Notes: generated by a model from the sequence alone, not told the origin. DNA of 64,000 nucleotides from Candidatus Woesearchaeota archaeon (GCA_964354405.1 CAYGZP010000001.1:210879-274878), one strand, 5' to 3'. Shown: positions 10,286 through 48,707, counted from the stretch's first letter. Translations and numbers: made by a program.

Positions 10286-11503
10286 ATGCAGATAATAGCA
10301 GATTTACACATCCACAGTAGATTCAGCAGAGCCACAAGCAAGGATTTGACTATCGCGAATCTGGAGAAATGGGCGAAAGTCAAGGGTTTAGATTTGTTGG
10401 GGACAGGAGACTTCTCGCATCCAGAATGGATTAAGGAGCTTAAATCCGAGCTCACTGAAGATGGCTCAGGAATTCTAAAAACAAAAAATGGATTTCCTTT
10501 CATATTGACGAATGAAGTCTCTTTGATGTATTCGCAAGATGGCAAAGGTAGAAGAATTCATCTTGTCTTGCTTGCCCCAAGCCTCGATATCGTCGATAAA
10601 ATCACAGATTATCTAAAGAGTAAGGGTCGCATAGATTATGATGGCCGCCCGATTTTTAACATTCCTTGCGATGAATTTGCAAAAGCAATGTTCGAAATCT
10701 CGAGCGATATTGAAATTATCCCAGCTCATGCCTGGACACCATGGTTCGGCATATTTGGCTCAGCAACGGGCTTCGACTCTATCGAAGAAGCTTTCAAAGA
10801 ACAAGCCAAATATATTCATGCATTTGAGACAGGCATGTCAAGCGACCCTGAAATGAATTGGAGGCTAAGCAACTTGGATAAATACACTATAGTTTCCTTT
10901 TCTGATTCACATTCATCCTGGCCTTGGCGTATAGGGAGAGAGGCCACAGCATTTGAACTTCCAAGATTGACTTACAAAAATATTATAGAATCGATAAGGG
11001 ACAATAAAATTGCATTCACAATAGAAACCTCTCCAAGTTATGGCAAATATCATTATGACGGCCACAGATTCTGCAGCTTCTCGTGCTCGCCAGAAGAGGC
11101 AGAAGATCACGATAACACATGTCCGATATGCCACAAACCTCTGACAATAGGTGTTTTACACAGAGTCAATGAATTGGCAGACAGGAAAGAAGGATTCAAG
11201 CCCGAGCATGCGAAGCCCTTCAAAACTCTCTTGCCTTTGCATGAGTTAATCGGCGCTGTTTTCGAAGTTTCAATGACTTCCAAGAAAGTTTGGCAAGAAT
11301 ACAACAAATTGATAGAAACTTTCGGCAATGAACTTAACATATTGCTTAATGTGTCTTTTGATGAGCTAAGGAAAGTAACCTCGACAAAGATTGTTCATGT
11401 CATTAAAGTCAACAGGGAAGGCAAGATAAAAGTAAAGCCCGGTTACGATGGTGAATATGGTGAGCTCATTCTCGAGGCCGAGAAACAAGAGACTTTGTTC
11501 TGA
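10286..11503 (+). CDS. Endonuclease Q family PHP-domain protein (TIGR00375-like)
   Basis: DLHIHSRFSRATS, GTGDFSHP, PAHAWTPWFG, SDSHS, GKYHYDGHR, CPIC, PGYDGEYG. Confidence 0.9.
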   Translation: MQIIADLHIHSRFSRATSKDLTIANLEKWAKVKGLDLLGTGDFSHPEWIKELKSELTEDGSGILKTKNGFPFILTNEVSLMYSQDGKGRRIHLVLLAPSLDIVDKITDYLKSKGRIDYDGRPIFNIPCDEFAKAMFEISSDIEIIPAHAWTPWFGIFGSATGFDSIEEAFKEQAKYIHAFETGMSSDPEMNWRLSNLDKYTIVSFSDSHSSWPWRIGREATAFELPRLTYKNIIESIRDNKIAFTIETSPSYGKYHYDGHRFCSFSCSPEEAEDHDNTCPICHKPLTIGVLHRVNELADRKEGFKPEHAKPFKTLLPLHELIGAVFEVSMTSKKVWQEYNKLIETFGNELNILLNVSFDELRKVTSTKIVHVIKVNREGKIKVKPGYDGEYGELILEAEKQETLF

Positions 11504-11550
11504 TTTTCAATAATCTTTATTTAACTTAATAGTAGTAACAAACAGAAAGA

Positions 11551-11558
11551 TTTATAAA
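11551..11558 (+). promoter_or_regulatory. Putative TATA box of DGR target gene (leaderless transcript)
   Basis: TTTATAAA preceded by purine-rich BRE-like AGAAAGA, 29 nt before ATG 11580; similar spacing at other genes in the window. Confidence 0.55.
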
Positions 11559-11579
11559 CTCCTTTTTCTTAAAATAAGC

Positions 11580-12287
11580 ATGGAAACAAAAGAATTAAAC
11601 GGCAATGGAAAAATTGTTGTAGCAAGAACAGAAATTTATGTTCCTCATTTAGGCGAAGTTTTGGCTTTTAGTTTGCCAATGACAGGCCCTAACTATTTTA
11701 AAGATATAATGGGCGCAATCGACCAGGATAAGAGATTGAGGCCTACAACTGCACAAACTTTATCTTTAGTTGATTTAGCTTTACAAAACCCTGATGAAGA
11801 GCATTGCGAAGAAATTTTAAGTAAATTTAAAAAACAGTATTTTTGGACATCAACAGAAAATTTATGGGGCAAAGAAGATGTAATTGTTTATGATAATCCT
11901 GATGGAACCATGCCTTCTGACAGGAAATCATTGATAAAAAGACATAAAGACGGCGATAAAGCAGTCAGAATTGTTCCTTATGGGTTTAGAACAGGAAGAC
12001 AATCAGTTGATGAATTGCTTAAAAATCCTTATGTAATTGCTCAAATTGGAAATAAAGAAATTCTTGATGTTGTTAAAAGAGTAGCTGAAGGAATAAGCGA
12101 AAATGAGCCTCATCTTTGGGCTTTAAATCCAACTCAAGAAGATGTTAAAAGATATACCGCGCTGTATTCCTACTGGTATGATGACAGGTTCAGCCTGAAT
12201 GGCAGCTGCGGTGACTACAGCAGGGATGGCTATGCTTCTGGGGTGCGTAATGCGAGCGCTGAAGGCGCGAAGCCGCAAAAAAAGTAA
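11580..12287 (+). CDS. DGR target (variable) protein, C-terminal VR
   Basis: VR encodes ALYSYWYDDRFSLNGSCGDYSRDGYASGV near the C-terminus. Confidence 0.92.
   Translation: METKELNGNGKIVVARTEIYVPHLGEVLAFSLPMTGPNYFKDIMGAIDQDKRLRPTTAQTLSLVDLALQNPDEEHCEEILSKFKKQYFWTSTENLWGKEDVIVYDNPDGTMPSDRKSLIKRHKDGDKAVRIVPYGFRTGRQSVDELLKNPYVIAQIGNKEILDVVKRVAEGISENEPHLWALNPTQEDVKRYTALYSYWYDDRFSLNGSCGDYSRDGYASGVRNASAEGAKPQKK
12157..12245 (+). repeat. DGR variable repeat (VR)
   Basis: 77/89 identical to 12498-12586; all 12 differences face TR adenines (4 A>T, 8 A>G). Confidence 0.95.
12256..12276 (+). promoter_or_regulatory. GC-rich GAA-loop hairpin(s) downstream of VR (candidate target-recognition element)
   Basis: GCGCT-GAA-GGCGC (12256-12268) overlapping GC-GC-GAA-GC(C)GC (12265-12276); absent after TR. 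Confidence 0.55.
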
Positions 12288-12379
12288 GCATAAGTTTATT
12301 AATTCTAAATTTAATCCTTTTTTGTCTTAGTTAAACTTCTCAATTCAAAAATAAACAAGAGAAGAAATTAGGGCCACAC

Positions 12380-12486
12380 GCCTGTTAATAGTGCTTGCTC
12401 AAATGAACAAGACATAAAATCAACTGCGACATTAAGTAAAGCAATTGAAATATGAAGCAGTGGTGATTTACTTTCAATTAATAGGC
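12380..12486 (+). ncRNA. Predicted structured RNA (three-way junction) 5' of TR
   Basis: Hand-found stems 12380-12389/12477-12486, 12394-12400/12405-12411 and 12417-12427/12457-12469. Confidence 0.4.
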
Positions 12487-12497
12487 TACATAGCTGT

Positions 12498-12586
12498 CCG
12501 CGCTGAATTCCAACTGGAATGATGACAGGTTCAACCTGAATGGCAACTACGATGACAACAACAGGAATGGCTATGCTTCTGGAATG
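12498..12586 (+). repeat. DGR template repeat (TR)
   Basis: Non-coding copy of VR with 28 adenines, 9 AAY codons in the target frame; ends 23 nt before the RT ATG. Confidence 0.95.
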
Positions 12587-12609
12587 GCTCTAGTTCTAAG
12601 ACTTATAAT

Positions 12610-13678
12610 ATGGCTAAAACATATAATCACCTTTATGAAAAAGTTATTTCTTTATCTAATTTAATTCTTGCTTGGCGAAAAGCGAGAAAAGGCAAAACAA
12701 AGAAGAATTATGTCAAAGAATTTGAAAAAGATACTCTAGGCAATTTGCTGAGATTGCAGAAAGAACTCTCTGAACAAACCTACTCGCCAAAACTACTTGT
12801 AACTTTTATTCTGCGAGATCCAAAAACTCGCAAGATTTCAAAATCTGCTTTTCGCGATAGAATTGTGCATCATGCATTATGCAATGTGATTGAGCCTATC
12901 TTCGAAAAGCTCTTTATTAATGATTCTTGCGCTAATAGGATTGGAAAAGGCAATCTTTTTGCTCTAAAAAGATTTGATGAATTTAAGAGAAAAGTTTCTA
13001 GAAATGGAAAAATAAATGGCTGGTTTAATAACAATCAAATAAGGGGATACTGCCTTAAGGCAGATATAAAACATTATTTTGAAGAAGTTAATCATGAAAT
13101 TCTTGTAAATATACTAGAAGGGAAAATCAGAGACGAAAGAACTATTTGGCTGATTAAACAGATACTTAACACTACTGTTTTTAATTCGGGGGGGGGGGGC
13201 GAACGAGAAAAAAAGTATGCCTCTTGGAAACTTAACTTCGCAATTCTTCGCCAATGTTTATTTAAATGAATTGGATTATTTTGTAAAACACAAACTAAAA
13301 GCAAAATATTACATAAGATATGTTGATGATTTTATTATTTTGCATGAGAATAAAATTCAACTTGAAGAATGGAAAGAGCAGATTAACAAATTTTTAAAAG
13401 AAAAATTAAAACTTGAGTTACATTATGAGAAGTCAAGAGTTATTGCTTTATCAAGAGGCATTGATTTTGTTGGCTTCAGGAATTTTTATTATTACAGATT
13501 ATTAAGAAAAAGAAATATTAAGAAAATGATATTTAAGATTAAAATGCTTAAAGAAGGCGTATTAAGTTATGGAAAACTTCTTGAAAGCTATCAAGGATGG
13601 CAGGCTTATGCAAGATGGGCAGATACATATAACTTAAGAAAGAAGATCCTTATGGAAATTGATAAAAGTAAAATATAA
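12610..13678 (+). CDS. DGR reverse transcriptase, interrupted by a +1 frameshift near G12 tract 13188-13199 (track ORFs 12610..13269 and 13217..13678)
   Basis: N-part: KTRKI, FRDRIVHHAL, LKADIKHYF; C-part: MPLGNLTSQFFANVYLNELD, YIRYVDDF, GIDFVGF; removing one base gives a 355-aa RT. Confidence 0.93.
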
Positions 13679-13728
13679 AAGTCTCGCGGGCTTTTTCTAA
13701 GCAAGCCCCCATAGGTCAATGGATGATT

Positions 13729-13800
13729 GGGCGCATAGTATAATGGATAGTATGAAACCTTGCGGAGGTTTTGATCCGGGTTCGAATCCTGGTGCGCCCA
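13729..13800 (+). tRNA. tRNA-Arg(GCG)
   Basis: GGGCGCA/TGCGCCC-A; anticodon arm AAACC-TTGCGGA-GGTTT; TTCGAAT T loop. Confidence 0.9.
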
Positions 13801-13804
13801 TTTA

Positions 13805-14668
13805 ATGTTCGAATCTCAGTGGGGGCATTTTAATAAGATGATAAAAAGGGTTTTTACAATTTTTATTTTTCTTTTGCTCGCGATTCTTGTTTCCGGCTGC
13901 GTTCAGGAAAGCGCGATAAGGCAAAGGATTCTCCAGCAAACCACAATAATTGAAGTTGTCGACGGTGACACAGTCAAGACATCTGACAATGAAACTCTGA
14001 GACTATTGCATATAAACACTCCTGAAAAAGGCGAGAAATGTTATAGTGAAGCAAAAGCAAGATTGAAAGAGCTGGTTGAGAACAAAACAGTTTGGCTTGA
14101 GCGCGACATGCAAGATGAAGACAAGTACAATAGAAAATTAAGATACATTTTTCTCAGTGCAAACACAAATTCTCAGGATTATCAAGATTTTGTGAATCTG
14201 ATGATTATTCGCGAAGGTTATGCCTCCCTGCTTATGATTGAACCGAACATGAAATATCAACAGGTTTTCGAACTCGCGCTAAATGATGCTTCACAAGAAC
14301 AAGGATGCATTTGGGGTTCGCCAAGCAATTACAAGAATTGTTTTGTTATAGAACAGTTTCACTCTGATGCAGAAGGCGATGATTGCGAGAATGCAAATGA
14401 TGAATATGTTTCACTAAAAAATATCTGTCAAGATATCGAAATGAAAGATTGGACAATCAAAGACTCTTCAAGAAAGGTTTATACTTTTAAAGATTTCACC
14501 GCAAAAACTAATAGCATATTTACTTTATACAGCGGCTCTGGTGCGGACAATGAACTTTCTCTTTTCTGGAATTCCGAGTTAACTTGCCCTTCAATATGGA
14601 ACAATGACCATGATTCATTATTTTTGCGCGATGCCGACGACAATCTTGTTCTGCAATATATCTATTAA
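13805..14668 (+). CDS. Thermonuclease (SNase) family lipoprotein with lamin-tail-like domain
   Basis: LVSGC lipobox-like; VVDGDT, RLLHINTPE, DKYNRKLRY; C-terminal NDEYVSLKN...IWNNDHD; start may be 13838. Confidence 0.88.
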   Translation: MFESQWGHFNKMIKRVFTIFIFLLLAILVSGCVQESAIRQRILQQTTIIEVVDGDTVKTSDNETLRLLHINTPEKGEKCYSEAKARLKELVENKTVWLERDMQDEDKYNRKLRYIFLSANTNSQDYQDFVNLMIIREGYASLLMIEPNMKYQQVFELALNDASQEQGCIWGSPSNYKNCFVIEQFHSDAEGDDCENANDEYVSLKNICQDIEMKDWTIKDSSRKVYTFKDFTAKTNSIFTLYSGSGADNELSLFWNSELTCPSIWNNDHDSLFLRDADDNLVLQYIY

Positions 14669-23891: not shown

Positions 23892-26800
23892 TTATACAAC
23901 AGTTACAGGTTTACTTGGGATTGTTAATTCACTAACTCCTTCAATTGCTCCTACATTGTGCAATCCAAGCGTTGTTGCGTTAACTCTCCATGATACAACT
24001 ATGAAACCTCCTTGAGGCAACAAAGTATAGCTTTGTACAGGATCTAAAGGTAACAAGTTATTAGGAGTGATAGTTAACAATGTAGGGAAATCATAAAACA
24101 CTTGATTAGTGAAAGTGTTCTGGATAGGCAAGTATACGTTGAAAAGTGTGTTTAATGAAGGATTTTGATTATCAATAAATATCTCTCGAGTGTCAATGCT
24201 TACAATATCATAAACACTCCATACAGGCAAGTCAAGAGTTTGGAAGTCGTTGCTTGGGTTGCTATCTCCTGCGACAGTTGCTTTGATTCTCAAAGTGTGT
24301 GTTCCTTTAGGCAAGGCATTATAATTGAATGAGACCACTTGAGAGCTTCCATTTGCTAAGCTTATTGTCTGTGTTCCGATTGTAACAGTTACTGGATTGC
24401 TTCCGACAATATAAGTGTCTGTAAAGTTCACGAGAATACTTGACTCGTTGATATTTCCTCTGTTGCTTACAGTTGCGCTGACATTTAACAAATCATTCAA
24501 GTAAACAGTTCTATTATCTCTTCCATTTATCTTTACTTCCCACATGTTATCAACGCTGACATCGTGTATCGCTTGAAGCACAGTAATGAAATGTGTCGCG
24601 CTCGCTGAGCTGTAGTTCTCGCTCTCGTTGTAGAATGCCGTTATATTGTAATAAGTTGGATTATTGTAAACTGAGACAACTGTTAAAGGCGAGTTGCCCG
24701 AGCCAAACTGAGTTCCATTTCTATATAATATCAAACTTCCAGAACTTGGAACATTCAATACAGCTGTATGGTTAACAGCTTGTCCTTCCATTATTGTTAT
24801 ATCACTGTTGCTTCCGTTCAAATATAATGTCAAGCTAGAGTTAGCTTTGTTGATTGTCAAGAAGTATGTGACAGAAGCTGTGCTGTGATTAACATCTCCA
24901 GTGCTTTGAGCTCTAATTTCATAGAATCCAGCAGCCAAGTTATTGAAAGTTTCTACGTAGCCAAGAGCAGGCCCTGCGATTAGAGAGCCATTTCTATAGA
25001 TGGTTACATTGCCATATAGAGTTGAAGCATTAAATTTCAAACTTGTGTTAGTATAAAGCACAGTCAAGTTTCCTTCTGTTCCATTCAACCATAAATGAAT
25101 ATCTCCTGGCAATAATGAAGAGACAATCAAAGTGTTTGTAACAGAAGCAGCTGTCCAATTCTGCGAGCCAGTAGTATTACAAACATAAGTATAATTGCCT
25201 ACAGGCAATGTAGCAACATTACTTATAAGATTGTAGCCGGATGCCACCAAAGTCAAGTTTCTGTAAAGTGTTAAGAACACTTCATTGTTGTTTGCTGAGC
25301 ATGAGACATTTGTCTGAGTTCCAACAGTAACATTCCATGACGGTATTGATGTCAAGTTCAAAATTGTTGTAGCTTGATTTACTGTCAATGTTCTGATAGG
25401 GGTTGTTCCAGCGCTGTAGTTCTGATTTCCAGTTGTGTTGTAAACATAATTGTAAACTCCTGCGCCAAGAACTCTTATATCTGATGCAGGATCACCAGAA
25501 ACAACTTGAGCATTATTTCTGTATAAGTTGTAAACAATACTAAGAACATTCAAGTCACTCCATCCAGTTGCGTTTGTTGTAGTTGGATATATAACAGTCA
25601 AATTTGATTCAGAGCCGTTTAGCGCGAGATGCAAGAAGTTGGTGATGTTTGCTTGAGTGATTACATAATTTAATAATGAAGTCTGGTTTCTGTTGTTGCT
25701 TGGGTCTCTTGCATACCATCTATAAGCATGAGTCCCGGCTGCTAAGTCAGTGAAGACATAAGAGCAGTTTGTATCTGCTGTTGGCATTGCAGGAATACAT
25801 GTAGGTGTGTAATTAACATTATCAAATTCAAACCAAACTTGGGCTACAGCAACATTGTCTTGCCATTCGATGCTGAAGTTGTAAGGCCCAGAACCATAGA
25901 CAGTTGGGCTTGCAGGCGAGACTTGCTCGTTCAAATACCAAGGAGCAATAGTGTCATTAACAACTTCTTGGATAACATTGATTGTTCTGTTTCTTTCGTT
26001 ATCTGTCAAGTTTCTGTCTGTGAATCCTATGATTGTAGTGTTTAGCAAAATATCATACTGTCCTGGAGCTATTCCAGTAACATTCCAGTTGTATGTTGGA
26101 TAAGTGAATACAACAACAATGAGCTGTTCTGTGTACAAGACATATCTATTTGTTGAGTTAACAAGATAATAAGTGTTATTGACAGTCTCGGGCTGAGTTC
26201 CATAGTTGTTGACTCGGGCTCTTAACTCATAAACTCTTGATAAGTTCAAAGTAGCAGGATCAGTCATGATTGGGGTTCCATTGTAACTTATTCTTATTCC
26301 GTTGATGCTGTTGCTGTAATTCATGTCAATTCCAACATCGTGGATTATTGGCGCGCTTGTATTGACAATGAAAGTCCAGTTCTGAGGAGCAAAAGCTCTT
26401 TGATTGATTTCATCAGCGCATTCAGCATTCCACAAGTAAACTCCGTTAGATAAATTAGTATAGCTGAAAGTGCTTGATGTCGCGTTGATTACAACTTGAG
26501 TTCCGTCAACTTGCCATAATCCGCTTGTGTTTGAATAAACATCACAAGTCAATAATATCGCGCTGTCATCTGTTACATTGTAAGTTACATCAACATCGCT
26601 GACATTAAACAATGTTCCGTCTAAAGGTGAAACTAACATAACAACAGGGGGCAAGTTAGTGATGCTTGTGTTCACAGTCACATATCTTGTCTCACTCACA
26701 TTCCAGTTATTGCTTGTGTCATTGGCATGAACTCTGTATATATACAAACCATCTGCTAATCCAGTTACATTCAAATAATAATTTGGTTCGGCGCCAGCCA

Positions 26801-29711
26801 TCGTGAAATTCGCGCCATTCCAATCAAGGATTGCAGTATTAACTGCAACATTGTCTGTGATAGTTGTGTTGACATACACATAATTGACATTAACAGTTGA
26901 ACCATTTGCTGGCGTCGGAGGCACAAAGATTATTGTAGGTGGCTCGATGTCCCCAGTTGTGGTTACAGTTATATTATAGACTCTGTCGAACGAACTTCCG
27001 CCTTGCTGGCAAGTTGTGGTAACCGTTATGTCTGAGATTCCAACTGCCGCAGCAGTCACGTTCCACTGTGTCACAACTGTAGTGCCATTAGCAATATTTC
27101 CTAAGACATTTACTGGCTGAGGAGTTGTTAAAACAGTTCCATTTGAAAAAATTATAGTTGCATTGCAGTCAATGACATCTGCGCCGACTGCAGTGATATT
27201 TGCTTCTGTCAAGAAAATCTGCGTTAAATTGAAAACATCATTATCATTAGGATAAGTTATTATTGTTGTAGTATTGCCTGCCCCCGGAGCTGTTTGCACA
27301 AAGAAGCTTGTTGTCTCAGTTATATTCCAGTTATTGCTTGTATCATTTGCAAAGATTCTTACATTGTATGATCCGATTTGGGATGTGTCTGAAAAGCCAT
27401 ATAAGTATTGTTCAAGAATCATTCCAGGAGCCATTGTAAAATTCAATGCAGTTGTATTAGGATAAGTTACTTGTGCTAAAACAGTGTCAACAGCAACATT
27501 ATCTCTAGCAAATGCTTCAAGAGTTGTCATATCTGATTGATTGATTATATTTGGAGTTGCGCTGACATTCCAGACTTCAGGAGGAATTGTATCCGGTCCA
27601 GTAACATTTGTTACATTCACCCAGAATGTTTCAGAACTTGTAGAATAATTTTGTGTTTCAGGATATAATGCAGTGAAATTATGCAATCCTGGCAATGGGA
27701 AACTTGTAACATAAGTTACAGTGTAATTGCCCGCAGTGATATATTGCCCGTCCATGTAAAGCCATATGTCATAAAGCTGGGGCTGTGGAACAGGAACGCT
27801 TGCCATGCCGCTTTGATTAGTATTTACATAAAATGGGATAAGTAAATAACCCGTTGCATTAACAATCTCACTTATATTTACTGTTATATTATTGCGGATG
27901 TCATTTAATCTTAATTCAACTAGTGAAGCAGCCTTGCTTACATTCAAAACATTTGCAACAGTTGCCGCACTCCAATTTTGAGTTTGGGCAGCACTGCAAT
28001 TATAATTATATAAACCCGCAGCAAAAACATTGACATCTGGATTGCTGACAGGCAATCCATTTCTTGTGAGAGTTATTGAAACTTCATTGTTATTCGCAGT
28101 GCATGAAACATTTGTTTGTATTGGATAAACTACATTCCATCCTGGAATTGCAGTCAATGTTAACACTGTCCGCGCCAATTCAATCACATAAGTTGCGTTT
28201 ACGCTCGCAGCAGTATAATTCTGGGTTTCAGTAACATTGCAAGTGTAATTATAACCCAAAGGATTTGCTGCCAAAGTCACAGGCAATCCATTTTCCAAGT
28301 CAACATTCAAGTCATCACGCCACATTCTTGCTGGTGCTTCAGGATTAGTGCAAGAACACCATGCAATAAAAGGTTGTAAGTCATAAGTTATTGGTGAAGG
28401 CGGTTCAAAAAACAAGTCACATGTCGCATTTATTTTTCCTGTCACATTCAACCATCTTGTAATGCTTTGTTCTGTATAATTTTGTGATTGAGGATAATAA
28501 TAAGTGTAATTATAATACCCTTGAGGTAATGTAGCTATTTCAGTTGCAGGTGAGCCTGTTGCAACAATTTGGTTATCTCTATAAAGTGTTGCCCCAGCAA
28601 CCCCTTCATTTATCATAAGCCATCCAGTTGCATTAGTCTGAATTCCAAAAGGTACAGTCAGATCTTGCTCTTGGCCATTCAATGCCAAATGTATAGTATG
28701 ATTTGCTATGTTTACAATGTAAACTGCTGTAGTGCTCGCATTCCAATAATTTTGAGTCCGAGTCACATTACATTCATAATTATAAATCCCAGCCCCTAAC
28801 AAAATAAATTGATTATTCTCACTATCAATATTTAAACCATCTCTCCATAAGCGGGCTGGAGCTTCAGGGTTAGTGCATCTGCATGAAGCATTCATCAAAG
28901 TTCCATAAGTTATAGGGCTCGAAGGATTAAAATTCAAATAACAAGTTGAATTTAACAAAACATTGATTACAGTTACGTTCCAAGCAACCGTGGCTACTCC
29001 GCCCCTGCCATCGTGGACAATAACATAGACATCGTGAAAGCCAGAAGCATTGAAATCAGGATTGTAATCATAACTTGAAGTGGTTGAGACTTGATTGCTG
29101 TCTAACTTCCATATATAATATAATGGATCATTGTTTGGATCGTGAGCCCAAACTTGGAAATGTAAGGTTTCATTCTCATTGACATCAGGAGTCAAATCCT
29201 GAGGAACATAACTATCAATTATAGGATTTTGATTCAATCCGTCGAATCTTATTGTTATAGTATCGGATTGGACAAGATGATTTCCCAAGTCCATTGTTGT
29301 TGAATAATAAGAATGAGTCGTGTTCTGGGTTTCTGTTTTGACTTTCACGAAAGTGCAGGTTGTCTGGCCGTAGCAATCCTTGTAACCCCATTCTTGATTG
29401 TCTTCATAAATCCTTATCCATCTTATTCCCGCATTGTCAAGATAATCTGTAGCTATTGCAGTCAACACAGCAGTAGTATTAGTATGTAAGGTGTTAGAAT
29501 AGAATTGCAATGTTGGAGGAGGATCAATAAACTCGCCGTAACCATCTCCAGGAGCAATATCCCCGGGATTGCCAATGCCTGGGTGTGTTATAGGCAAGGT
29601 TGGTTGTGGTTGTTCAGGCGATATGCCCGGAGCAAAAAATCCTGTAAGCAATACTGGCAAAATTATGAATAAAGGAATCAACCCTAAAATCAATCTCGCT
29701 TTTTTGTTCAT
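23892..29711 (-). CDS. Giant (1939 aa) secreted multi-Ig-like-domain surface glycoprotein
   Basis: Signal peptide; internal repeats (SPITY...CTNPEAPAR.WRD x2, HLALNG, ANDTSNNWN x2); very many NxS/T sequons. Confidence 0.85.
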   Translation of the reverse strand: MNKKARLILGLIPLFIILPVLLTGFFAPGISPEQPQPTLPITHPGIGNPGDIAPGDGYGEFIDPPPTLQFYSNTLHTNTTAVLTAIATDYLDNAGIRWIRIYEDNQEWGYKDCYGQTTCTFVKVKTETQNTTHSYYSTTMDLGNHLVQSDTITIRFDGLNQNPIIDSYVPQDLTPDVNENETLHFQVWAHDPNNDPLYYIWKLDSNQVSTTSSYDYNPDFNASGFHDVYVIVHDGRGGVATVAWNVTVINVLLNSTCYLNFNPSSPITYGTLMNASCRCTNPEAPARLWRDGLNIDSENNQFILLGAGIYNYECNVTRTQNYWNASTTAVYIVNIANHTIHLALNGQEQDLTVPFGIQTNATGWLMINEGVAGATLYRDNQIVATGSPATEIATLPQGYYNYTYYYPQSQNYTEQSITRWLNVTGKINATCDLFFEPPSPITYDLQPFIAWCSCTNPEAPARMWRDDLNVDLENGLPVTLAANPLGYNYTCNVTETQNYTAASVNATYVIELARTVLTLTAIPGWNVVYPIQTNVSCTANNNEVSITLTRNGLPVSNPDVNVFAAGLYNYNCSAAQTQNWSAATVANVLNVSKAASLVELRLNDIRNNITVNISEIVNATGYLLIPFYVNTNQSGMASVPVPQPQLYDIWLYMDGQYITAGNYTVTYVTSFPLPGLHNFTALYPETQNYSTSSETFWVNVTNVTGPDTIPPEVWNVSATPNIINQSDMTTLEAFARDNVAVDTVLAQVTYPNTTALNFTMAPGMILEQYLYGFSDTSQIGSYNVRIFANDTSNNWNITETTSFFVQTAPGAGNTTTIITYPNDNDVFNLTQIFLTEANITAVGADVIDCNATIIFSNGTVLTTPQPVNVLGNIANGTTVVTQWNVTAAAVGISDITVTTTCQQGGSSFDRVYNITVTTTGDIEPPTIIFVPPTPANGSTVNVNYVYVNTTITDNVAVNTAILDWNGANFTMAGAEPNYYLNVTGLADGLYIYRVHANDTSNNWNVSETRYVTVNTSITNLPPVVMLVSPLDGTLFNVSDVDVTYNVTDDSAILLTCDVYSNTSGLWQVDGTQVVINATSSTFSYTNLSNGVYLWNAECADEINQRAFAPQNWTFIVNTSAPIIHDVGIDMNYSNSINGIRISYNGTPIMTDPATLNLSRVYELRARVNNYGTQPETVNNTYYLVNSTNRYVLYTEQLIVVVFTYPTYNWNVTGIAPGQYDILLNTTIIGFTDRNLTDNERNRTINVIQEVVNDTIAPWYLNEQVSPASPTVYGSGPYNFSIEWQDNVAVAQVWFEFDNVNYTPTCIPAMPTADTNCSYVFTDLAAGTHAYRWYARDPSNNRNQTSLLNYVITQANITNFLHLALNGSESNLTVIYPTTTNATGWSDLNVLSIVYNLYRNNAQVVSGDPASDIRVLGAGVYNYVYNTTGNQNYSAGTTPIRTLTVNQATTILNLTSIPSWNVTVGTQTNVSCSANNNEVFLTLYRNLTLVASGYNLISNVATLPVGNYTYVCNTTGSQNWTAASVTNTLIVSSLLPGDIHLWLNGTEGNLTVLYTNTSLKFNASTLYGNVTIYRNGSLIAGPALGYVETFNNLAAGFYEIRAQSTGDVNHSTASVTYFLTINKANSSLTLYLNGSNSDITIMEGQAVNHTAVLNVPSSGSLILYRNGTQFGSGNSPLTVVSVYNNPTYYNITAFYNESENYSSASATHFITVLQAIHDVSVDNMWEVKINGRDNRTVYLNDLLNVSATVSNRGNINESSILVNFTDTYIVGSNPVTVTIGTQTISLANGSSQVVSFNYNALPKGTHTLRIKATVAGDSNPSNDFQTLDLPVWSVYDIVSIDTREIFIDNQNPSLNTLFNVYLPIQNTFTNQVFYDFPTLLTITPNNLLPLDPVQSYTLLPQGGFIVVSWRVNATTLGLHNVGAIEGVSELTIPSKPVTVV

Positions 29712-42118: not shown

Positions 42119-43912
42119 ATGAAAAATAAAATAGTGATAAGCGCAGGAATTTTCTTAGTTATAATACTTTTAATAATTACCATACAAGCCATTCAAGCTC
42201 AAGAGCAAAAGGGCTGTTGTCTTGACACAGGAAAAGGTCAGCAGTGTGTTTCAACAACTCGAGCAGAGTGTCTTGGAAGATTTTTCACAGGGCCTCCTTT
42301 CGACTGTTCTAACGTCGCTGAATGTAAAGCACAAACATGCATCCCTAAACAAAAAGATGAAGCATGCATGAGAAACAAGGCAGCTGCAGAATGTTTGGCA
42401 ATGGGCGGAGTTCCAGATGCCAAGCCCCTCGAAGAAATCGCACAATGCAAGCCCGGCTGCTGCATAATCGCAAAAGGTGTCAAGGCAGAAGTGTTGCAAT
42501 ACAGACAATGCGAAAATCTTACAAAAACTCTTGGTTATGATTTAGAGATGATGGAATTCAAGGAAGGAATAACAAGTCAGATTGAATGCAAGAAAGTTGG
42601 CTCTCCAAGTGACTTAGGATGTTGTGTTGTCGGAGATGGTGATTGTAAATATGGCGCTCGAGAGCAATGCGGCGAAGGAAGTTTCGTTCCGTTAGCAGGC
42701 GGATTATTCTGCCGCGATGTCACATCATGCGCGCTAACAACTCATTTTTATTCAGACTGCGGAACATTGCCAGGAACAGAAACTGATATTTACTTTTTCG
42801 ACAGCCAAGGAAATCAAGAAGAGTTGAAAGCTTCATGCAGATATCCTGAAGCAATCTGCTCCAAAGATGCAGAAGGTAGAGTTTCCTGCAAAGACACAAA
42901 ATGTGATGTTAATGGACAAGCTCAGGAAATGTCAAGCACTCCTCCAAAAATCACTATTGTTTCTATCGAACAAACTTTGCTCACAGGAACAAGCATGTGT
43001 TATAATTTTTACACAGATTATGTCGGCGGCGAAGAGAAAGATGAAGCCCAATCATATTTATACAGAAGAAGCACAGGATTGCAGAATCAGATAATCCACT
43101 GCGGCTTCGGCAAGCTTGAGATTGAAGGCTTGGGAGTAGACAGACAAAAATTATGCTTCCCTGCCAATCCCACAGTTCAGGGAGGCGTTGCAACATTCCA
43201 TGCAAATGTCAAGGAAAATAAAGGGCAGAACTGCTCTCAGTGCGGCGCATCATCAGGATTATTCGGATTTGGCAATGATGTCGGCGACTTCCTTGGCCCC
43301 GCGTCTATAGGATTACCAACAGGAAAGATGTTCTCAGCACTTTTCGGAGATTATTGCACTAAAGAGAAATGCGAGAACATTGGCGGCGATTGTTATTATC
43401 ATCAGGATTTACCAGGATTCGTCGGAGGAACTCCAGTTGGCTCGTGTGATTCAATTTATCCTCCTGGCTCATCAGCAAGTAAATGCAGTGAATGTGGAGA
43501 TGGCGGAGATTCAGTATGGAACCTTTGTACAAGAGCAGAATGCAACAGCAAGGGTGATTGCACTTTCAATGATGCGAATGCCTTTGCAAAAGCAGGAACA
43601 TTAGCATGGTTCTGGCCGGGATTAGCAGTCGGCGAGAGAGTCTCATCAATCATCCCAGAATGCACCGCTACATCAATCTACTGTGCAATAAACTGTGCAG
43701 CAGGATGCACTGACACAGCATGCTTGCATCCATCAAACAACAACTTTTTCAAATGTCTTGGAGACAGAGGCAAAGCCTATGCAATATGGGCGCCTGTGTG
43801 GATAATCAATGGAAAATTAATCGGAGCAGCATGGGACGCTCTCAGCGGCAAAGTCACCACAGCGATAGTAGACAAGGCCACAAGTTCAGTAATAGGAGGC
43901 GAAAAGAAATAA
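42119..43912 (+). CDS. Secreted Cys-rich protein
   Basis: Signal peptide; repeated GCC motifs; hydrophobic Gly/Ala-rich C-terminal segments. Confidence 0.75.
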   Translation: MKNKIVISAGIFLVIILLIITIQAIQAQEQKGCCLDTGKGQQCVSTTRAECLGRFFTGPPFDCSNVAECKAQTCIPKQKDEACMRNKAAAECLAMGGVPDAKPLEEIAQCKPGCCIIAKGVKAEVLQYRQCENLTKTLGYDLEMMEFKEGITSQIECKKVGSPSDLGCCVVGDGDCKYGAREQCGEGSFVPLAGGLFCRDVTSCALTTHFYSDCGTLPGTETDIYFFDSQGNQEELKASCRYPEAICSKDAEGRVSCKDTKCDVNGQAQEMSSTPPKITIVSIEQTLLTGTSMCYNFYTDYVGGEEKDEAQSYLYRRSTGLQNQIIHCGFGKLEIEGLGVDRQKLCFPANPTVQGGVATFHANVKENKGQNCSQCGASSGLFGFGNDVGDFLGPASIGLPTGKMFSALFGDYCTKEKCENIGGDCYYHQDLPGFVGGTPVGSCDSIYPPGSSASKCSECGDGGDSVWNLCTRAECNSKGDCTFNDANAFAKAGTLAWFWPGLAVGERVSSIIPECTATSIYCAINCAAGCTDTACLHPSNNNFFKCLGDRGKAYAIWAPVWIINGKLIGAAWDALSGKVTTAIVDKATSSVIGGEKK

Positions 43913-43913
43913 A

Positions 43914-44003
43914 ATGAAAAACAAAAAAATAATTTTAATTTTAGCAATTTTTTCAGTTGCGATTCTAATGATGATTCTAATGATATTACCTTTAGTTCTA
44001 GCT
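43914..44003 (+). repeat. Signal-peptide DNA repeat (copies at 43914, 44787, 45990)
   Basis: First 42 nt of 43914 and 45990 differ at 1 position; shared TAATGATATTACCTTTAGTT; 44787 shares the first 34 nt with 1 mismatch. Confidence 0.8.
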
Positions 44004-44531
44004 CAGGAAGAAGAAGTTATAGAATCAGCATCAGATACAGGTGTTAAAGTACAATTAACTATTCCTAAGAACCATCAAATGTTCGTTGGCAGAGAATATC
44101 GTTTTACATGTCGTTTTAGTAATGAACAACCATGGGCACTCGGACATTGGGTATACATAAATTATTGGGATGCTTCTGGTAATGTTATAAAAAATGCAGG
44201 ACATACTGGTAGCCCTAAATATTATAGTTTACCAATTGGTCCATTTTATGAAGAAAAAACCATTTATGTTAGGTGTGAAGTATTCAGATCAGCGTTTATT
44301 TTCGGGGCATTTCCATCAAGCGATTCTATAGGTAGATGTCCTAATGAAGAAGATGCCGTTGTTATAAAAGTAGTTAAAAAATCATCTGTATCTGATATTG
44401 TATGGGCTAATGGTAAGATAGCACAATTAAAAGTAATAAAAGCTAAAGCAGAAAACGCGGGTAAAACAAAACTTGCAGATTTAACACAACAAATGATAAC
44501 TAAATTTGAAAATTATAAAAGCGCAGCGTAG
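43914..44531 (+). CDS. Secreted hypothetical protein (cassette A)
   Basis: MKNKKIILILAIFS signal peptide. Confidence 0.7.
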   Translation: MKNKKIILILAIFSVAILMMILMILPLVLAQEEEVIESASDTGVKVQLTIPKNHQMFVGREYRFTCRFSNEQPWALGHWVYINYWDASGNVIKNAGHTGSPKYYSLPIGPFYEEKTIYVRCEVFRSAFIFGAFPSSDSIGRCPNEEDAVVIKVVKKSSVSDIVWANGKIAQLKVIKAKAENAGKTKLADLTQQMITKFENYKSAA

Positions 44532-44535
44532 CAAA

Positions 44536-44790
44536 ATGAATCTAAAATATATTTTAAAAGATATTTTAATTATAAGCGCTATAACTTTTCTTTCTAGTTG
44601 TGAAAAGATAGAATATAGTCAAAGAAAAAAATATGAAAGAGAAATAGATAGCCTTAAAACAGAAATAGTAAGGTATGATGATAGTATAAATACTCTTAAT
44701 AGTAAAATAAAAAAATTAGTGCTTGAAGTAGAATTTGAGCAACTTATGCGAAAAGCTGAAAAAGAACTAGGAGAATCTTTAGAAAAATGA
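44536..44790 (+). CDS. Small putative lipoprotein, coiled coil
   Basis: MNLKY...FLSSC then heptad repeats. Confidence 0.65.
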   Translation: MNLKYILKDILIISAITFLSSCEKIEYSQRKKYEREIDSLKTEIVRYDDSINTLNSKIKKLVLEVEFEQLMRKAEKELGESLEK

Positions 44791-45635
44791 AAAACAAAAA
44801 AATAATTTCAATTTTAGCAACGATACTAATTATCTTAGCAGCCATGCCTTTCGTATTAGCACAGGATGAGATAGAGATTACTGTTGAAGAACAACCAACA
44901 AGCGGAGGGATTTCCACTATGGGAGTCGCCACCCCCAATATGGATGTGATTGCCGTTGGGAATAATGCAGCCCAAATAAAATGTTACCTTAGTGATGAGA
45001 ATGAATATCTTAAACAAGGACATGAATATAAAATAGTTTTTGAAGCAACTAAAGATATATTATTTTTGAAAACAATTAATGAAGTTAAACCAATCGCACA
45101 AAGTAGACTTAAGGGATTTAAGAAAGAAATAAAAATTTACAAAGAAGTCCCTGGAGTTACGGTAGGAAAGATAGCTCAATGGGTTCCTGCAGTACCTACT
45201 TTCTATTATAATGTTGTATCTTGGCTGGCAGGAGGGAAACCCCTGATTCGTAGCGGGGATAAAGACATAACTGCGACAATTCCTTATAGTCCTCAATTAA
45301 ATGATAAAAATTTGAATTATGTCGAAGAGAAAGTAGAGGTTTCATGCAAGTTTTATGTTAAAATTCCTACAGACGTAGGAAAAGCCCAAGAAAGTATAAT
45401 TGCAAGTCCAACAAAAACTATAACCTTCAAGAAACCAATTAATTTAGAGAGTTTGAATCCGAAACAGAGAGAAATAAAAACAAACTATGATGATATCATA
45501 AAGGGTTTAGAAAAAAATCGAGATTTATTAAAAGAAAAACGTCCTGATGTTTATCCACAAATTGTAAATGATATAAATCGAGTTTTAAATGACTTAAGAA
45601 AACAAAGAGATGAAGAGATTATAAAAGCATCTTAA
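44787..45635 (+). CDS. Secreted hypothetical protein (cassette B)
   Basis: MKNKKIISILA signal peptide. Confidence 0.7.
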   Translation: MKNKKIISILATILIILAAMPFVLAQDEIEITVEEQPTSGGISTMGVATPNMDVIAVGNNAAQIKCYLSDENEYLKQGHEYKIVFEATKDILFLKTINEVKPIAQSRLKGFKKEIKIYKEVPGVTVGKIAQWVPAVPTFYYNVVSWLAGGKPLIRSGDKDITATIPYSPQLNDKNLNYVEEKVEVSCKFYVKIPTDVGKAQESIIASPTKTITFKKPINLESLNPKQREIKTNYDDIIKGLEKNRDLLKEKRPDVYPQIVNDINRVLNDLRKQRDEEIIKAS

Positions 45636-45643
45636 AAATTAAA

Positions 45644-45988
45644 ATGAATTTAAAATATTATGTCGCAGGAGCCGCAGTTGTATTAACAATAATAGGGTGC
45701 TCTTCAAAAAATTATGAAGAAAAAATGCAACAGTATGAAGATAGGATTCACGCATGTGAATTACGCATCGGGGCACTTGAATCCGAGGTAACTAAATTAA
45801 AAAATCCTAAATTTAATAGTTTAGCACAAGACGAAGATTTAAGTTCAATAATTCGTAAAGATTTATCAGATTTAGAAAAGATGGACTTGGGCGATTCCCC
45901 TGAACTTCGAGCTATTAGGGAAGATCTTGGGAATTTATATAAAGAAATATTAAAAGCGATAGAAGAATCCCCACAACCAAAAAAATAA
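45644..45988 (+). CDS. Small putative lipoprotein, coiled coil
   Basis: MNLKY...IIGC then heptad repeats. Confidence 0.65.
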   Translation: MNLKYYVAGAAVVLTIIGCSSKNYEEKMQQYEDRIHACELRIGALESEVTKLKNPKFNSLAQDEDLSSIIRKDLSDLEKMDLGDSPELRAIREDLGNLYKEILKAIEESPQPKK

Positions 45989-45989
45989 A

Positions 45990-48707
45990 ATGAAAACCAA
46001 AAAAATAATTTTAATTTTAGCAATTTTTTCACTCGTGATTTTAATGATATTACCTTTAGTTTTAGCTGATGCCCTAGATGAAGCCAAAGCTTTAAATCAA
46101 AAAATAGTAGAATTATTAGGTGGCGGCAAAACAATGGGCGGCGAACCTGTAATTCCTGGCGGCGGCACAACAGCAGATAAATGTGCACAGTGGGGCGGGT
46201 TTAAAAAAACAATAGATAATAAATATCTTCCACTTCCAACCCCCCCTCAAACAAAAATTATTACTGAAGGTGACAAGGCATTTGAATGCATCAAGGGAAT
46301 GTTTCCTAATTTAGCAAACAACATTGTATGTTGCAAAGAAATAGCGATGCCTGCAGACACATGCAAACCAGCCGGAGGCACTTGCACTCCTAATGCATGC
46401 GATCCAAAAACAGAAACAGAAAAAACTGACTTGAAATGCCCGACAACAACTGACAAATGCTGCATCAAGAAAACTTGTGAAGAGCTCGACGGAACAAAAG
46501 TCACAAAAACAGACGAGCAAGATAAATGCAAGCAGCCGACACTCATAATCCAAGCAGGCGATGTTGGCGAGAAAGAGATATGCTGCGTTCCAAAAGAACC
46601 ATCGAGAGAAGCTCCAAAGAAGCCAGGAACCTTAGGGAGATTACAAGTCTGTATAGGAAGATACTGGTTGTGGGGCGTTGAGAAAGATACTGAATTTTTG
46701 GATAAAGCTTCAACAAGTTTAAGCGGAGTAAGTGGGATAGACAGCACTAAAACAAAGCTTAATGATCTTAAAACAAATTTCAAAAATTATAACTCAGCAC
46801 AGAAATCAGATAAAATTGATGAGATAAACACAGAACTTTTCAATGCAAGAAAGAAAGTTGTTGAAGGTAAGACAGGAGATACCCTAAAAACCGCCCAAGA
46901 ACAACAGCAAAAGATGGGCGAAGCCCAAGATTCTTTAGAGAAAGCTCGGGCAATTCACACAATGGCGTGGCCTGAGATTGCCGCGAATATTATGGCATGC
47001 GCTCTAGCAACATATAAGGCAGGAACTTTGTCTTTGCAAGGCGGCGATAATGAAATGGGCTCATGCAATGCCGAGCAGCCATTGAAAGGCACTGATTATT
47101 GTACATCATGCAATGAAGATCCTTTGAGATTATGCACTAGCGAGAGATGTTTGATGTTAGGCAATTGTATTCCTGTTCCGACATCAAAAGCAGACCAGTT
47201 TGCTTGCATTCCGGGCAAGTGTGAAGATACAGGAATTCCAATTTTCACAGAAGGAAAAGCAGAATGGTGGATTGACGGCACAATGAATGGCTCTCAAACC
47301 TTAGCTTTAAGCGGCGGCAACATAAGAGCATACTTGAATAGCGAGAAGCCGATTCCATTCAACACCAAGACAATTGTATTAAATGTCACGACAGACAAGC
47401 CAGCCCAATGCCGTTACATTGTTGATACGAGAGGCGCAAACTTCTCACAAATGCAAGATTTCGAGGAGAATTACTTCCCGACAAAAGCAGATGGCACTGG
47501 CTCATGGCAGCTCGCGCATGTCTCATTGCCAGGCGACATCGCCAGAAACGCCGAGCACAGAATATTTATCAAGTGCAAAAATGCTTGCGGAGTTGAGCCT
47601 TCAGGAAGTTATGATCAAAACATTGTTTCATTCAAGCTAGACAAGAAACCAGATCAACTGCCTCCTGAAATAGTTTATGTTGATCCTGCAAACAAGGCAA
47701 TGGTCAGAGATGACTTAGCGATACTCAACGCAAGCTTCTGGCTTGATGAAAAGGGCTCATGCAAGTTCAGCGACAAGTCAATCAACTTTACAATCCAGTA
47801 CACTGGTTCGGGGAATGTAATGATTCCATTTGGCAAAGTCAGTCCTAATCCTAAAGATTCGAGTGTTGTAGCAGGCGGATGCTACTTAGGCAAATGTCTT
47901 GACAGAAATGATTCATGCTCAAGATGCTGGCTCGCGATGGATTTGTCTAAAGGTTATGAATTAATTAATTTCAGCTCCAGCGAGTTCAACGAGACAAGGA
48001 TGTTCAACTTGCTCATAAGATGTAATGATGTCGCAGGAAATATTATGACTGAAGATAACATTTTAGATTACACTTTGATGACAGCTCCAGGTTATAATAT
48101 TTCAATTATAGAGCCAGAAGACGGCTCAAAGACTTATGAGCGCTCGCCAGAGATTGAAGTCACAAGTGATCCAAGATTGACAGAATGTCGATATAAGACT
48201 TACATAGGCTCAGGGCCAAAGACTCCTCCTGCATGGGATGAGATGTGGGCTATCGACGAAGAATTCGCAATATTGCATCAAGGCAAGCACAATGAAACCC
48301 TGAACGGCTCGAAAGAAGGAATGTTATACACAACGTGGGCAAGATGCCGCGACACCTGGCACATCGAAGCAACAGATTCAACAAGATTTTATGTATTGTT
48401 AGATGAGCAGAAACCAATAATCATCAGGATGTATCATGATATAACTGTAGGGGATTATCTTGTAATTGAAACAGATGAAGAGAGTGAATGTGTCTATGGA
48501 ACTTCAGACACAATAAAATGCGCTTACAATTTCTCCGACGGCAGCGCATTCACAACAAGCGACATGTACTTGCATGCAGCTTACTGGCAGTTAAGCAGTT
48601 TGTATTACATAAAGTGCAAAGACAAATGGAACAATTATCCTGGCAAGAGCAGCAATGCGAATCAGTGCACTGCGATTATCAACCCTTACGAAGTTCCTAT
48701 AATGTAA
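45990..48707 (+). CDS. Large secreted Cys-rich protein with Ig-like C-terminal domains
   Basis: Signal peptide; CC repeats; CNEDPLRLCTSERCLMLGNC; TTDKPAQCRY, YIKCKDKWNN. Confidence 0.78.
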   Translation: MKTKKIILILAIFSLVILMILPLVLADALDEAKALNQKIVELLGGGKTMGGEPVIPGGGTTADKCAQWGGFKKTIDNKYLPLPTPPQTKIITEGDKAFECIKGMFPNLANNIVCCKEIAMPADTCKPAGGTCTPNACDPKTETEKTDLKCPTTTDKCCIKKTCEELDGTKVTKTDEQDKCKQPTLIIQAGDVGEKEICCVPKEPSREAPKKPGTLGRLQVCIGRYWLWGVEKDTEFLDKASTSLSGVSGIDSTKTKLNDLKTNFKNYNSAQKSDKIDEINTELFNARKKVVEGKTGDTLKTAQEQQQKMGEAQDSLEKARAIHTMAWPEIAANIMACALATYKAGTLSLQGGDNEMGSCNAEQPLKGTDYCTSCNEDPLRLCTSERCLMLGNCIPVPTSKADQFACIPGKCEDTGIPIFTEGKAEWWIDGTMNGSQTLALSGGNIRAYLNSEKPIPFNTKTIVLNVTTDKPAQCRYIVDTRGANFSQMQDFEENYFPTKADGTGSWQLAHVSLPGDIARNAEHRIFIKCKNACGVEPSGSYDQNIVSFKLDKKPDQLPPEIVYVDPANKAMVRDDLAILNASFWLDEKGSCKFSDKSINFTIQYTGSGNVMIPFGKVSPNPKDSSVVAGGCYLGKCLDRNDSCSRCWLAMDLSKGYELINFSSSEFNETRMFNLLIRCNDVAGNIMTEDNILDYTLMTAPGYNISIIEPEDGSKTYERSPEIEVTSDPRLTECRYKTYIGSGPKTPPAWDEMWAIDEEFAILHQGKHNETLNGSKEGMLYTTWARCRDTWHIEATDSTRFYVLLDEQKPIIIRMYHDITVGDYLVIETDEESECVYGTSDTIKCAYNFSDGSAFTTSDMYLHAAYWQLSSLYYIKCKDKWNNYPGKSSNANQCTAIINPYEVPIM

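Follow-up and report, generated by a model that had tools for sequence, protein, structure and literature searches.

The stretch analysed here, which we call the window, comprises 64,000 nucleotides of one strand of a Candidatus Woesearchaeota archaeon genome (GCA_964354405.1, CAYGZP010000001.1:210879-274878), and positions are counted from its first letter unless a contig of the source assembly (C1, C2 and so on) is named. It contains what is almost certainly the cassette of a diversity-generating retroelement (DGR), arranged in the order target gene (with variable repeat, IMH and hairpin), RT-16 RNA, template repeat with IMH*, and RT gene; as to type, the element belongs to an already published DGR lineage. 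The features assigned to it are the following.

11504..13666, + strand: the whole cassette as an insertion (approximate), between a TIGR00375 gene and a tRNA-Arg promoter region
11551..11558, + strand: TATA-like box TTTATAAA, 22 nt upstream of the target ATG; predicted leaderless archaeal promoter, its function proposed from the sequence
11580..12287, + strand: target gene, 235 aa, with a predicted AvpA-like C-type-lectin (CLec) fold, from an AlphaFold model and structure comparison
12157..12245, + strand: variable repeat (VR), target residues 194-222, aligned to the template repeat without gaps
12239..12244, + strand: IMH, TGGGGT, assigned by sequence; the same as the DUSEL4 motif given in PMC4372165
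12256..12268, + strand: hairpin with a GAA triloop and a T-G closing pair, within the target ORF, assigned by comparison across cassettes
12315..12494, + strand: RT-16 RNA (Rfam RF03019), adjoining the template repeat; predicted 5' domain of the DGR RNA (90.8 bits, E 1.7e-14)
12363..12376, + strand: predicted 5' arm of a closing helix, pairing with 12585-12598
12498..12586, + strand: template repeat (TR), with 9 AAY codons and IMH* TGGAAT (12580-12585) at its 3' end
12585..12598, + strand: predicted 3' arm of the closing helix, pairing with 12363-12376 and enclosing the TR in the loop
12610..13269, + strand: N-terminal half of the RT, motifs 1-3, 219 aa; out of frame past the G run, then a stop
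13188..13199, + strand: G12 run in a variable loop before (G)MPLGN; candidate phase-variation tract, in frame with 11 or 14 G
13208..13216, + strand: A7 run and AGT (Ser) codon, an alternative site of the extra base; Gly in 165 of 167 relatives
13217..13678, + strand: C-terminal half of the RT, with MPLGNLTSQ, YVDD and thumb, 153 aa, and its own ATG

Two genomes of the same genus delimit the cassette. The site is empty in G002 and is occupied in G001 by another target-like gene, which is broken and has no RT beside it, and we therefore regard the cassette as an insertion of about 11504-13666. The flanks are housekeeping genes, among which no phage context was found. The gene at the G001 site (L244 2790-3720) is of DGR target type, is broken by a short duplication and retains an IMH, and the site appears to have been reused. 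Immediately downstream of the cassette, an intact intron-less tRNA-Arg(GCG) at 13728-13801 is nested within the shell of another tRNA, of which the 5' acceptor and D arm (13705-13724) and the T arm and acceptor (13807-13827) remain; because the outer tRNA-Arg(GCG), with its intron, is still complete here in G001 and G002, a different tRNA gene has replaced it in place within 13705-13827. Elsewhere in the window, 25153-28785 and 43903-46048 carry a degenerate, dispersed 42-nt repeat in 7 copies, together with a signal-peptide-like gene start that is present 3 times. Small contigs of the source assembly (for example C8, C20, C22 and C24) have a GC content of 0.55-0.73, compared with 0.37 for C1 and C2, and are likely binning contamination.

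The VR and TR align over 89 nt at an offset of 341, without gaps, and differ at 12 positions, every one of them a TR adenine; no mismatch at any other base was found at this locus. With 28 adenines in 89 nt, the probability that all 12 would fall on A by chance is 1.3e-7. The first-pass annotation had reported this alignment, and both it and the two encoded peptides were reproduced exactly. It had also taken the 12 mismatches as the signature of mutagenic retrohoming, and in this respect the count has to be lowered: the mismatches at 12242-12243 are the difference between IMH and IMH*, which recurs in related cassettes, so that 10 changes, in 10 codons, are attributable to mutagenesis. The changes at adenine are skewed over all TR/VR pairs that we compiled (73 loci), with 547 to G, 285 to T and 31 to C. 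The nine AAY codons of the TR allow 15^9 = 3.8e10 variants, which agrees with the earlier figure of about 4x10^10 as arithmetic; with the RT gene frameshifted, the number describes a capacity and not a present output. The AAY positions are also the most variable columns of the target protein, with a mean entropy among 85 aligned homologs of 3.12 bits, compared with 1.69 bits for the other VR positions and 1.48 bits for residues 1-193. Additional VRs served by this TR, for which the first-pass annotation had proposed a search, were not found elsewhere in the assembly by blastn or by an A-tolerant scan, the best other site matching at 32 of 59 non-A positions.

The target protein has no family in Pfam or NCBIfam, and its 87 sequence matches (itself included) are, where named, from Pacearchaeota and Nanoarchaeota. 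Its AlphaFold model (pLDDT 93.7) most resembles AvpA, a nanoarchaeal DGR target with a CLec fold (PMC5006420; PDB 5IOO), with a Foldseek E value of 6.4e-6 and a VIA Z score of 17.1 (rmsd 2.6 over 178 aligned residues, 15% identity); the next DGR target by structure, 5VF4, scores Z 8.4. The tip of a protein with a predicted lectin fold has been rewritten by the DGR, and the proposal that this is a DGR with a history of adenine mutagenesis is borne out by the target fold, by the variability of the AAY columns and by the RT profile described below. The target contains no hydrophobic segment (highest 19-residue hydropathy 1.11) and is apparently soluble, and archaeal clade 5 DGR targets likewise lack such a segment (Roux et al., PMC8144416). 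A GNA-loop stem of at least 4 pairs is present in 44 of 64 cassettes, 42 of them with a perfect stem and 2, including the present locus, with a T-G closing pair; the folding z-score of the hairpin by itself is not significant.

The genome holds a second complete DGR (C1:389159-391247), with a 251-aa target, a 92-nt TR/VR pair with 18 mismatches at A only, a perfect GAA hairpin, an RT-16 RNA and an intact 339-aa RT without a repeat. A remote paralog of its target (81%) lies at C1:282032-282691, where the VR, IMH and hairpin are present, a TR and an RT are absent, and a small indel in the VR shifts the frame. The TATA-like motif of the first target's promoter also occurs upstream of these two other target genes.

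The RNA between target and TR matches the full RT-16 model, at 90.8 bits against a gathering score of 50, and RT-16 and tRNA are the only Rfam matches in 11500-13900. In each of the genome's two DGRs, RT-16 adjoins the TR. Among 101 genomes, a related RT is present in 36, RT-16 in 34, and bAvd over cut-off in 2; RT-16 was found in 18 of 20 loci scanned, and the two without it (L048 and L049) are the Avd-bearing ones. The present cassette has no avd-sized ORF between target and TR: no ATG-started ORF of more than 15 aa lies between VR and TR, stop-to-stop frames wholly inside that gap reach at most 30 aa, and only 24 nt separate the TR from the RT start. Neither PF22296 nor PF05635 has a match in the 98%-complete genome, although a very divergent Avd could escape such profiles. 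Across these sequences RT-16 and the absence of avd appear to go together, which we put forward as a co-occurrence and not as a causal link, and we predict that RT-16 supplies the RNA scaffold in a cassette without Avd. According to Wu et al. (PMC5758913), avd accompanies 74% of DGRs and Avd-independent homing is suggested for others. Weinberg et al. 2017 (PMC5737381) assigned only RT-10 to a DGR in their main text, with speculation on others, and our literature search, which took in the main text of that paper, returned no assignment of RT-16 to this type of DGR.

The predicted closing helix would hold the TR in a loop. Anchoring succeeded for 28 of 81 loci, which are related to one another; in these, the first 8 pairs of the helix were 91% paired, with changes on both sides, compared with 74% (maximum 81%) in a control in which the arms were re-dealt. 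Handa et al. (10.1101/2023.10.23.563531) describe a duplex between sequences upstream and downstream of the TR, and by analogy the helix at our locus is likely the counterpart of the BPP-1 cPRT Stop duplex.

The RT itself is not encoded by one intact gene. Its two ORFs (12610-13269 and 13217-13678) are in different frames, with a +1 shift at the G12/A7 region, upstream of the half that carries LGNLTSQ and YVDD. These two motifs had been cited as the mark of a DGR-type RT downstream of the TR; both are indeed present (in the region 13217-13243 and at 13319-13330), but both are in the second ORF. Over the two halves taken together, no deviation was found at 92 conserved columns. A profile of both halves and 26 in-frame relatives matched the bRT of BPP-1 in the PDB at E 3.6e-60, whereas group II intron RTs reached 2e-32 at best and retron RTs 4e-5; this assignment of class is by profile scores. 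We rejected a group II intron or retron RT accordingly, also in view of scores against TIGR04416 of 69 and 66 bits where the cut-off is 300. The ratio dN/dS of the RT versus its neighbours is about 0.1-0.2, with dS near saturation, so that the ratio cannot date the frameshift.

The G12 run is the longest run of G or C in the 834-kb genome, which otherwise contains 21 runs of 7 and one each of 8, 9 and 11. It falls in a loop that varies in length among relatives and is disordered (pLDDT<50) in the model of an in-frame relative. Across 101 genomes, 7 of about 50 listed runs of G9 or longer sit in this same RT loop. The G11 run of the genome (C1:419590-419600) is in frame near the 5' end of another ORF and, like the run in the RT, has the bases CGA directly after it; it is a possible second contingency locus, downstream of a gene that we take to be KaiC-like.

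We asked how often such repeats occur in related RTs, and in which frame. Copies were drawn from relatives of the genome, from species genomes searched by motif (119 of about 430 stretches) together with one viral contig (the single locus returned by the scan of viral contigs), and from metagenome cassettes picked by their target gene. We excluded 8 of 170 loci that lacked both halves, 54 of 70 in a further set, 10 duplicates and 1 copy with an N gap, and were left with 167 unique RT copies. A repeat was called as G>=6 or (AG)>=4, thresholds that were fixed after the linkers had been viewed. By this measure 30 of the 50 copies with poly-G or (AG)n in the loop are out of frame, compared with 3 of the 117 without (Fisher P 1e-16, which is overstated for loci that are related). 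The association recurs in each sampling set, at 12/21 with a repeat versus 0/27 without, 12/20 versus 3/88, and 6/9 versus 0/2. Long tracts (G>=8, AG>=6) are out of frame in 28 of 39 cases, which fits the two-thirds expected of random phase (P=0.61), and short tracts in 2 of 11. Eleven metagenome cassettes of the target family have a whole linker, with a tract in 9, of which 6 are out of frame. In six loci of the collection (L186, L187, L015, L037, L125 and L195) the interval from the first target to the TR holds an additional ORF or VR, and tandem targets are likely there. No repeat is present in 117 of the 167 copies, the majority of the clade and among them the second DGR of this genome; the repeat is therefore dispensable, which we count against a role as a switch. 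We also rejected the idea that the repeat compensates for the lack of Avd, as most Avd-less cassettes, the second DGR among them, have no repeat.

All three frames occur among the 50 repeat-bearing copies: 20 are in frame, 19 at +1 and 11 at +2. This spread bears on the possibility that the loop is a recoding site or a split point, at which reinitiation from the second ATG, frameshifting by the ribosome or slippage in transcription would keep RT at a constant, low level, in the manner of a dimmer and not of a switch. The C-terminal half does have its own ATG (13217), and an A7 run does lie downstream of the G run, yet a programmed shift would have a fixed direction. A related proposal is that the intact RT of the second DGR acts in trans. 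It might complement the first, given that both DGRs have RT-16 and that their RTs are 64%/51% identical; among relatives, however, 6 of 12 out-of-frame copies are the sole RT match in their (incomplete) genome. We regard recoding, a split gene or complementation in trans, taken together, as very unlikely to account for the locus.

Additional evidence comes from protein databases. Of the best 120 of 1486 homologs of the N-terminal half, 119 could be classed: 48 were full length and 71 truncated, and in 68 of the latter the truncation falls at a run of Gly or of Glu-Arg, with the reservation that a short query favours truncated matches and that the classification is rough. Among the proteins that bear a run are five sets with 98-100% identity, three of which include both full and truncated forms (P0098/P0102, 99.5%; P0108/P0109, 100%; P0150/P0159, P0161 and P0206, 99%) and two truncated forms only. 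In the three ON/OFF sets, reading the end of the full form in the shifted frame gives the truncated tail exactly, over 17/17, 5/5 and 18/18 residues, where shuffled sequences gave a mean of less than 1 and a maximum of 3-5; for one pair the tail is only 5 residues long, a match within reach of shuffled sequences.

Homopolymers are error-prone in sequencing, and a miscount in sequencing or assembly would leave a true RT gene that is intact and a DGR that is simply active. The proteins of each ON/OFF set come from separate assemblies, and slips at G runs would look just like the differences between them. The (AG)n tracts, however, are dinucleotide repeats, and they are spread over the frames in the same way (9 of 14 out of frame). 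A general homopolymer fault in the assembly is unlikely: the genes adjoining the cassette are full length, and there is little loss of ORFs at A/T runs, which lie inside long ORFs on C1 at 0.60 for runs of 5, 0.58 for runs of 7 and 0.46 for runs of 8 or more. An artefact would in addition leave the clustering of repeats in this one loop unexplained. We therefore judge a miscount to be highly improbable.

A third alternative, which we consider unlikely though deserving of more weight, is that the DGR was recently inactivated: the loop would be a neutral slippage hotspot in a tolerant part of the protein, and out-of-frame copies would be young pseudogenes that seldom revert. Several observations are compatible with this. 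In the present copy, Ser (AGT) replaces the Gly that is near-invariant before MPLGN, and the hairpin has the T-G closing pair seen in 2 of 44 stems; both may mark early decay. Cassettes have been gained and lost at this site within the genus, and the saturation of dS prevents dating. G runs elsewhere in the RT also coincide with truncation, in L027, L032 and L087; these are G6-G10 runs in the C-terminal half near the closure of the frame, and are possible second tract sites. Against this alternative, the out-of-frame copies have no excess of other lesions: extra defects are present in 2 of 24 out-of-frame repeat copies and in 9 of 78 repeat-free in-frame copies, YVDD is kept in 24 of 24 out-of-frame copies, and the median number of deviations at conserved columns is 2 in both the out-of-frame and in-frame groups. 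Non-A mismatches between TR and VR occur in 3 of 15 loci with an out-of-frame RT, compared with 11 of 36 comparison loci, and the present copy has none, nor any deviation at the 92 conserved columns. Finally, two types of repeat recur at one site across the tree, even though these genomes have very few long G runs. A quick tree of 110 RT copies, computed without the loop and leaving 53 of its 107 branches open, intermingles copies with G, with AG and with no repeat, and places G and AG forms as sisters at a starred branch.

Taking this evidence together, we propose that the G12 run is likely a reversible, phase-variable on/off switch for the RT, which is OFF in this assembly. Weighing against a switch at this particular copy are the Ser before MPLGN where 165 of 167 have Gly, the T-G closure of the hairpin, and the extra base, which could equally sit in the A7 run. 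We favour, with somewhat less assurance, the more general proposal that DPANN DGRs are under a heritable stochastic switch: poly-G or (AG)n would be repeatedly gained or interconverted in one permissive RT loop, about two-thirds of long-tract alleles would be off, and hypermutation would come in bursts in a sub-population, in an Avd-free class in which RT-16 RNA takes the place of the helper protein and of the downstream spacer.

Slipped-strand mispairing is an established cause of length change at bacterial contingency loci. In the mechanism that we envisage, such slippage during replication would add or remove a G in the run, and about one length class in three would give a full RT, with poly-Gly in the flexible loop. 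By extension from the BPP-1 model, a transcript of RT-16 and TR, closed by the helix around the TR, would then template error-prone cDNA, and this cDNA would replace the VR at the IMH and hairpin. Variation would fall mainly on the nine residues encoded by AAY codons, which lie in the face of the soluble CLec-fold protein that is predicted to bind ligand. A minority of cells would thus mutate the target, while the rest would keep the selected variant.

Should the switch reading be mistaken, what remains is an unexceptional representative of a DGR lineage already in the literature. If it is right, a mutator would here be subject to phase variation, and in an archaeon. Our literature search, which covered titles and the beginnings of abstracts and had Paul et al. 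2017 outside its scope, returned no description of a repeat tract in DGR RTs, and neither the tract nor the assignment of RT-16 appears in the consulted portions of two reviews (PMC8867640 and PMC8632793); likewise, the consulted portions of these and of PMC8144416 do not name a slippery tract as the brake on DGR activity once a good variant has been reached. Such a tract would be a simple and measurable answer, since the spread of tract lengths and the diversity of the VR can be read from one metagenome. Surveys that require a full-length RT would miss or discard such elements, which here number 30 of 167 copies. The combination of RT and RT-16 without Avd is also a candidate for a compact, two-component mutagenesis tool.

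Among known systems, the closest are the DUSEL4 and AvpA DGRs (PMC4372165 and PMC5006420). Paul et al. 2015 (PMC4372165) give IMH TGGGGT with IMH* TGGAAT as the signature of the DUSEL4 Nanoarchaeota DGR, and our locus shares this pair of motifs, a GRA-triloop hairpin within the target ORF, an orphan CLec-fold target with an internal VR, and a capacity of about 1e10-1e13. The locus L103 of SCGC AAA011-G17 has the same order of elements and an RT-16. The differences are that the target here is only 15% identical to AvpA, that the RT here is split by G12 whereas L103 has no run, and that no Avd-sized ORF lies between target and TR here, where Paul et al. 2015 mark candidate ORFs in some cassettes.

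The BPP-1 DGR (mtd-avd-TR-brt; PDB 8UB7) has in common with our locus the RT family, the A-to-N pattern, and an IMH with hairpin. Unlike BPP-1, our cassette and genome contain no Avd that we could find, the RT carries a frameshift tract, a structured RNA (RT-16) lies upstream and the TR-RT gap is short in place of a long downstream spacer, and the target is chromosomal and apparently soluble. The RNA agrees with Rfam RT-16 (RF03019) in its full-length match over the gathering score and in adjoining an RT gene. The tract itself resembles the bacterial SSR contingency loci, such as poly-G in Campylobacter and Neisseria, in which the length of an intragenic poly-G or dinucleotide tract sets the frame; here too an intragenic repeat sets the frame, at a conserved site. 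It differs from them in that the organism is an archaeon and that the controlled gene is a mutator and not a surface-structure or methylase gene.
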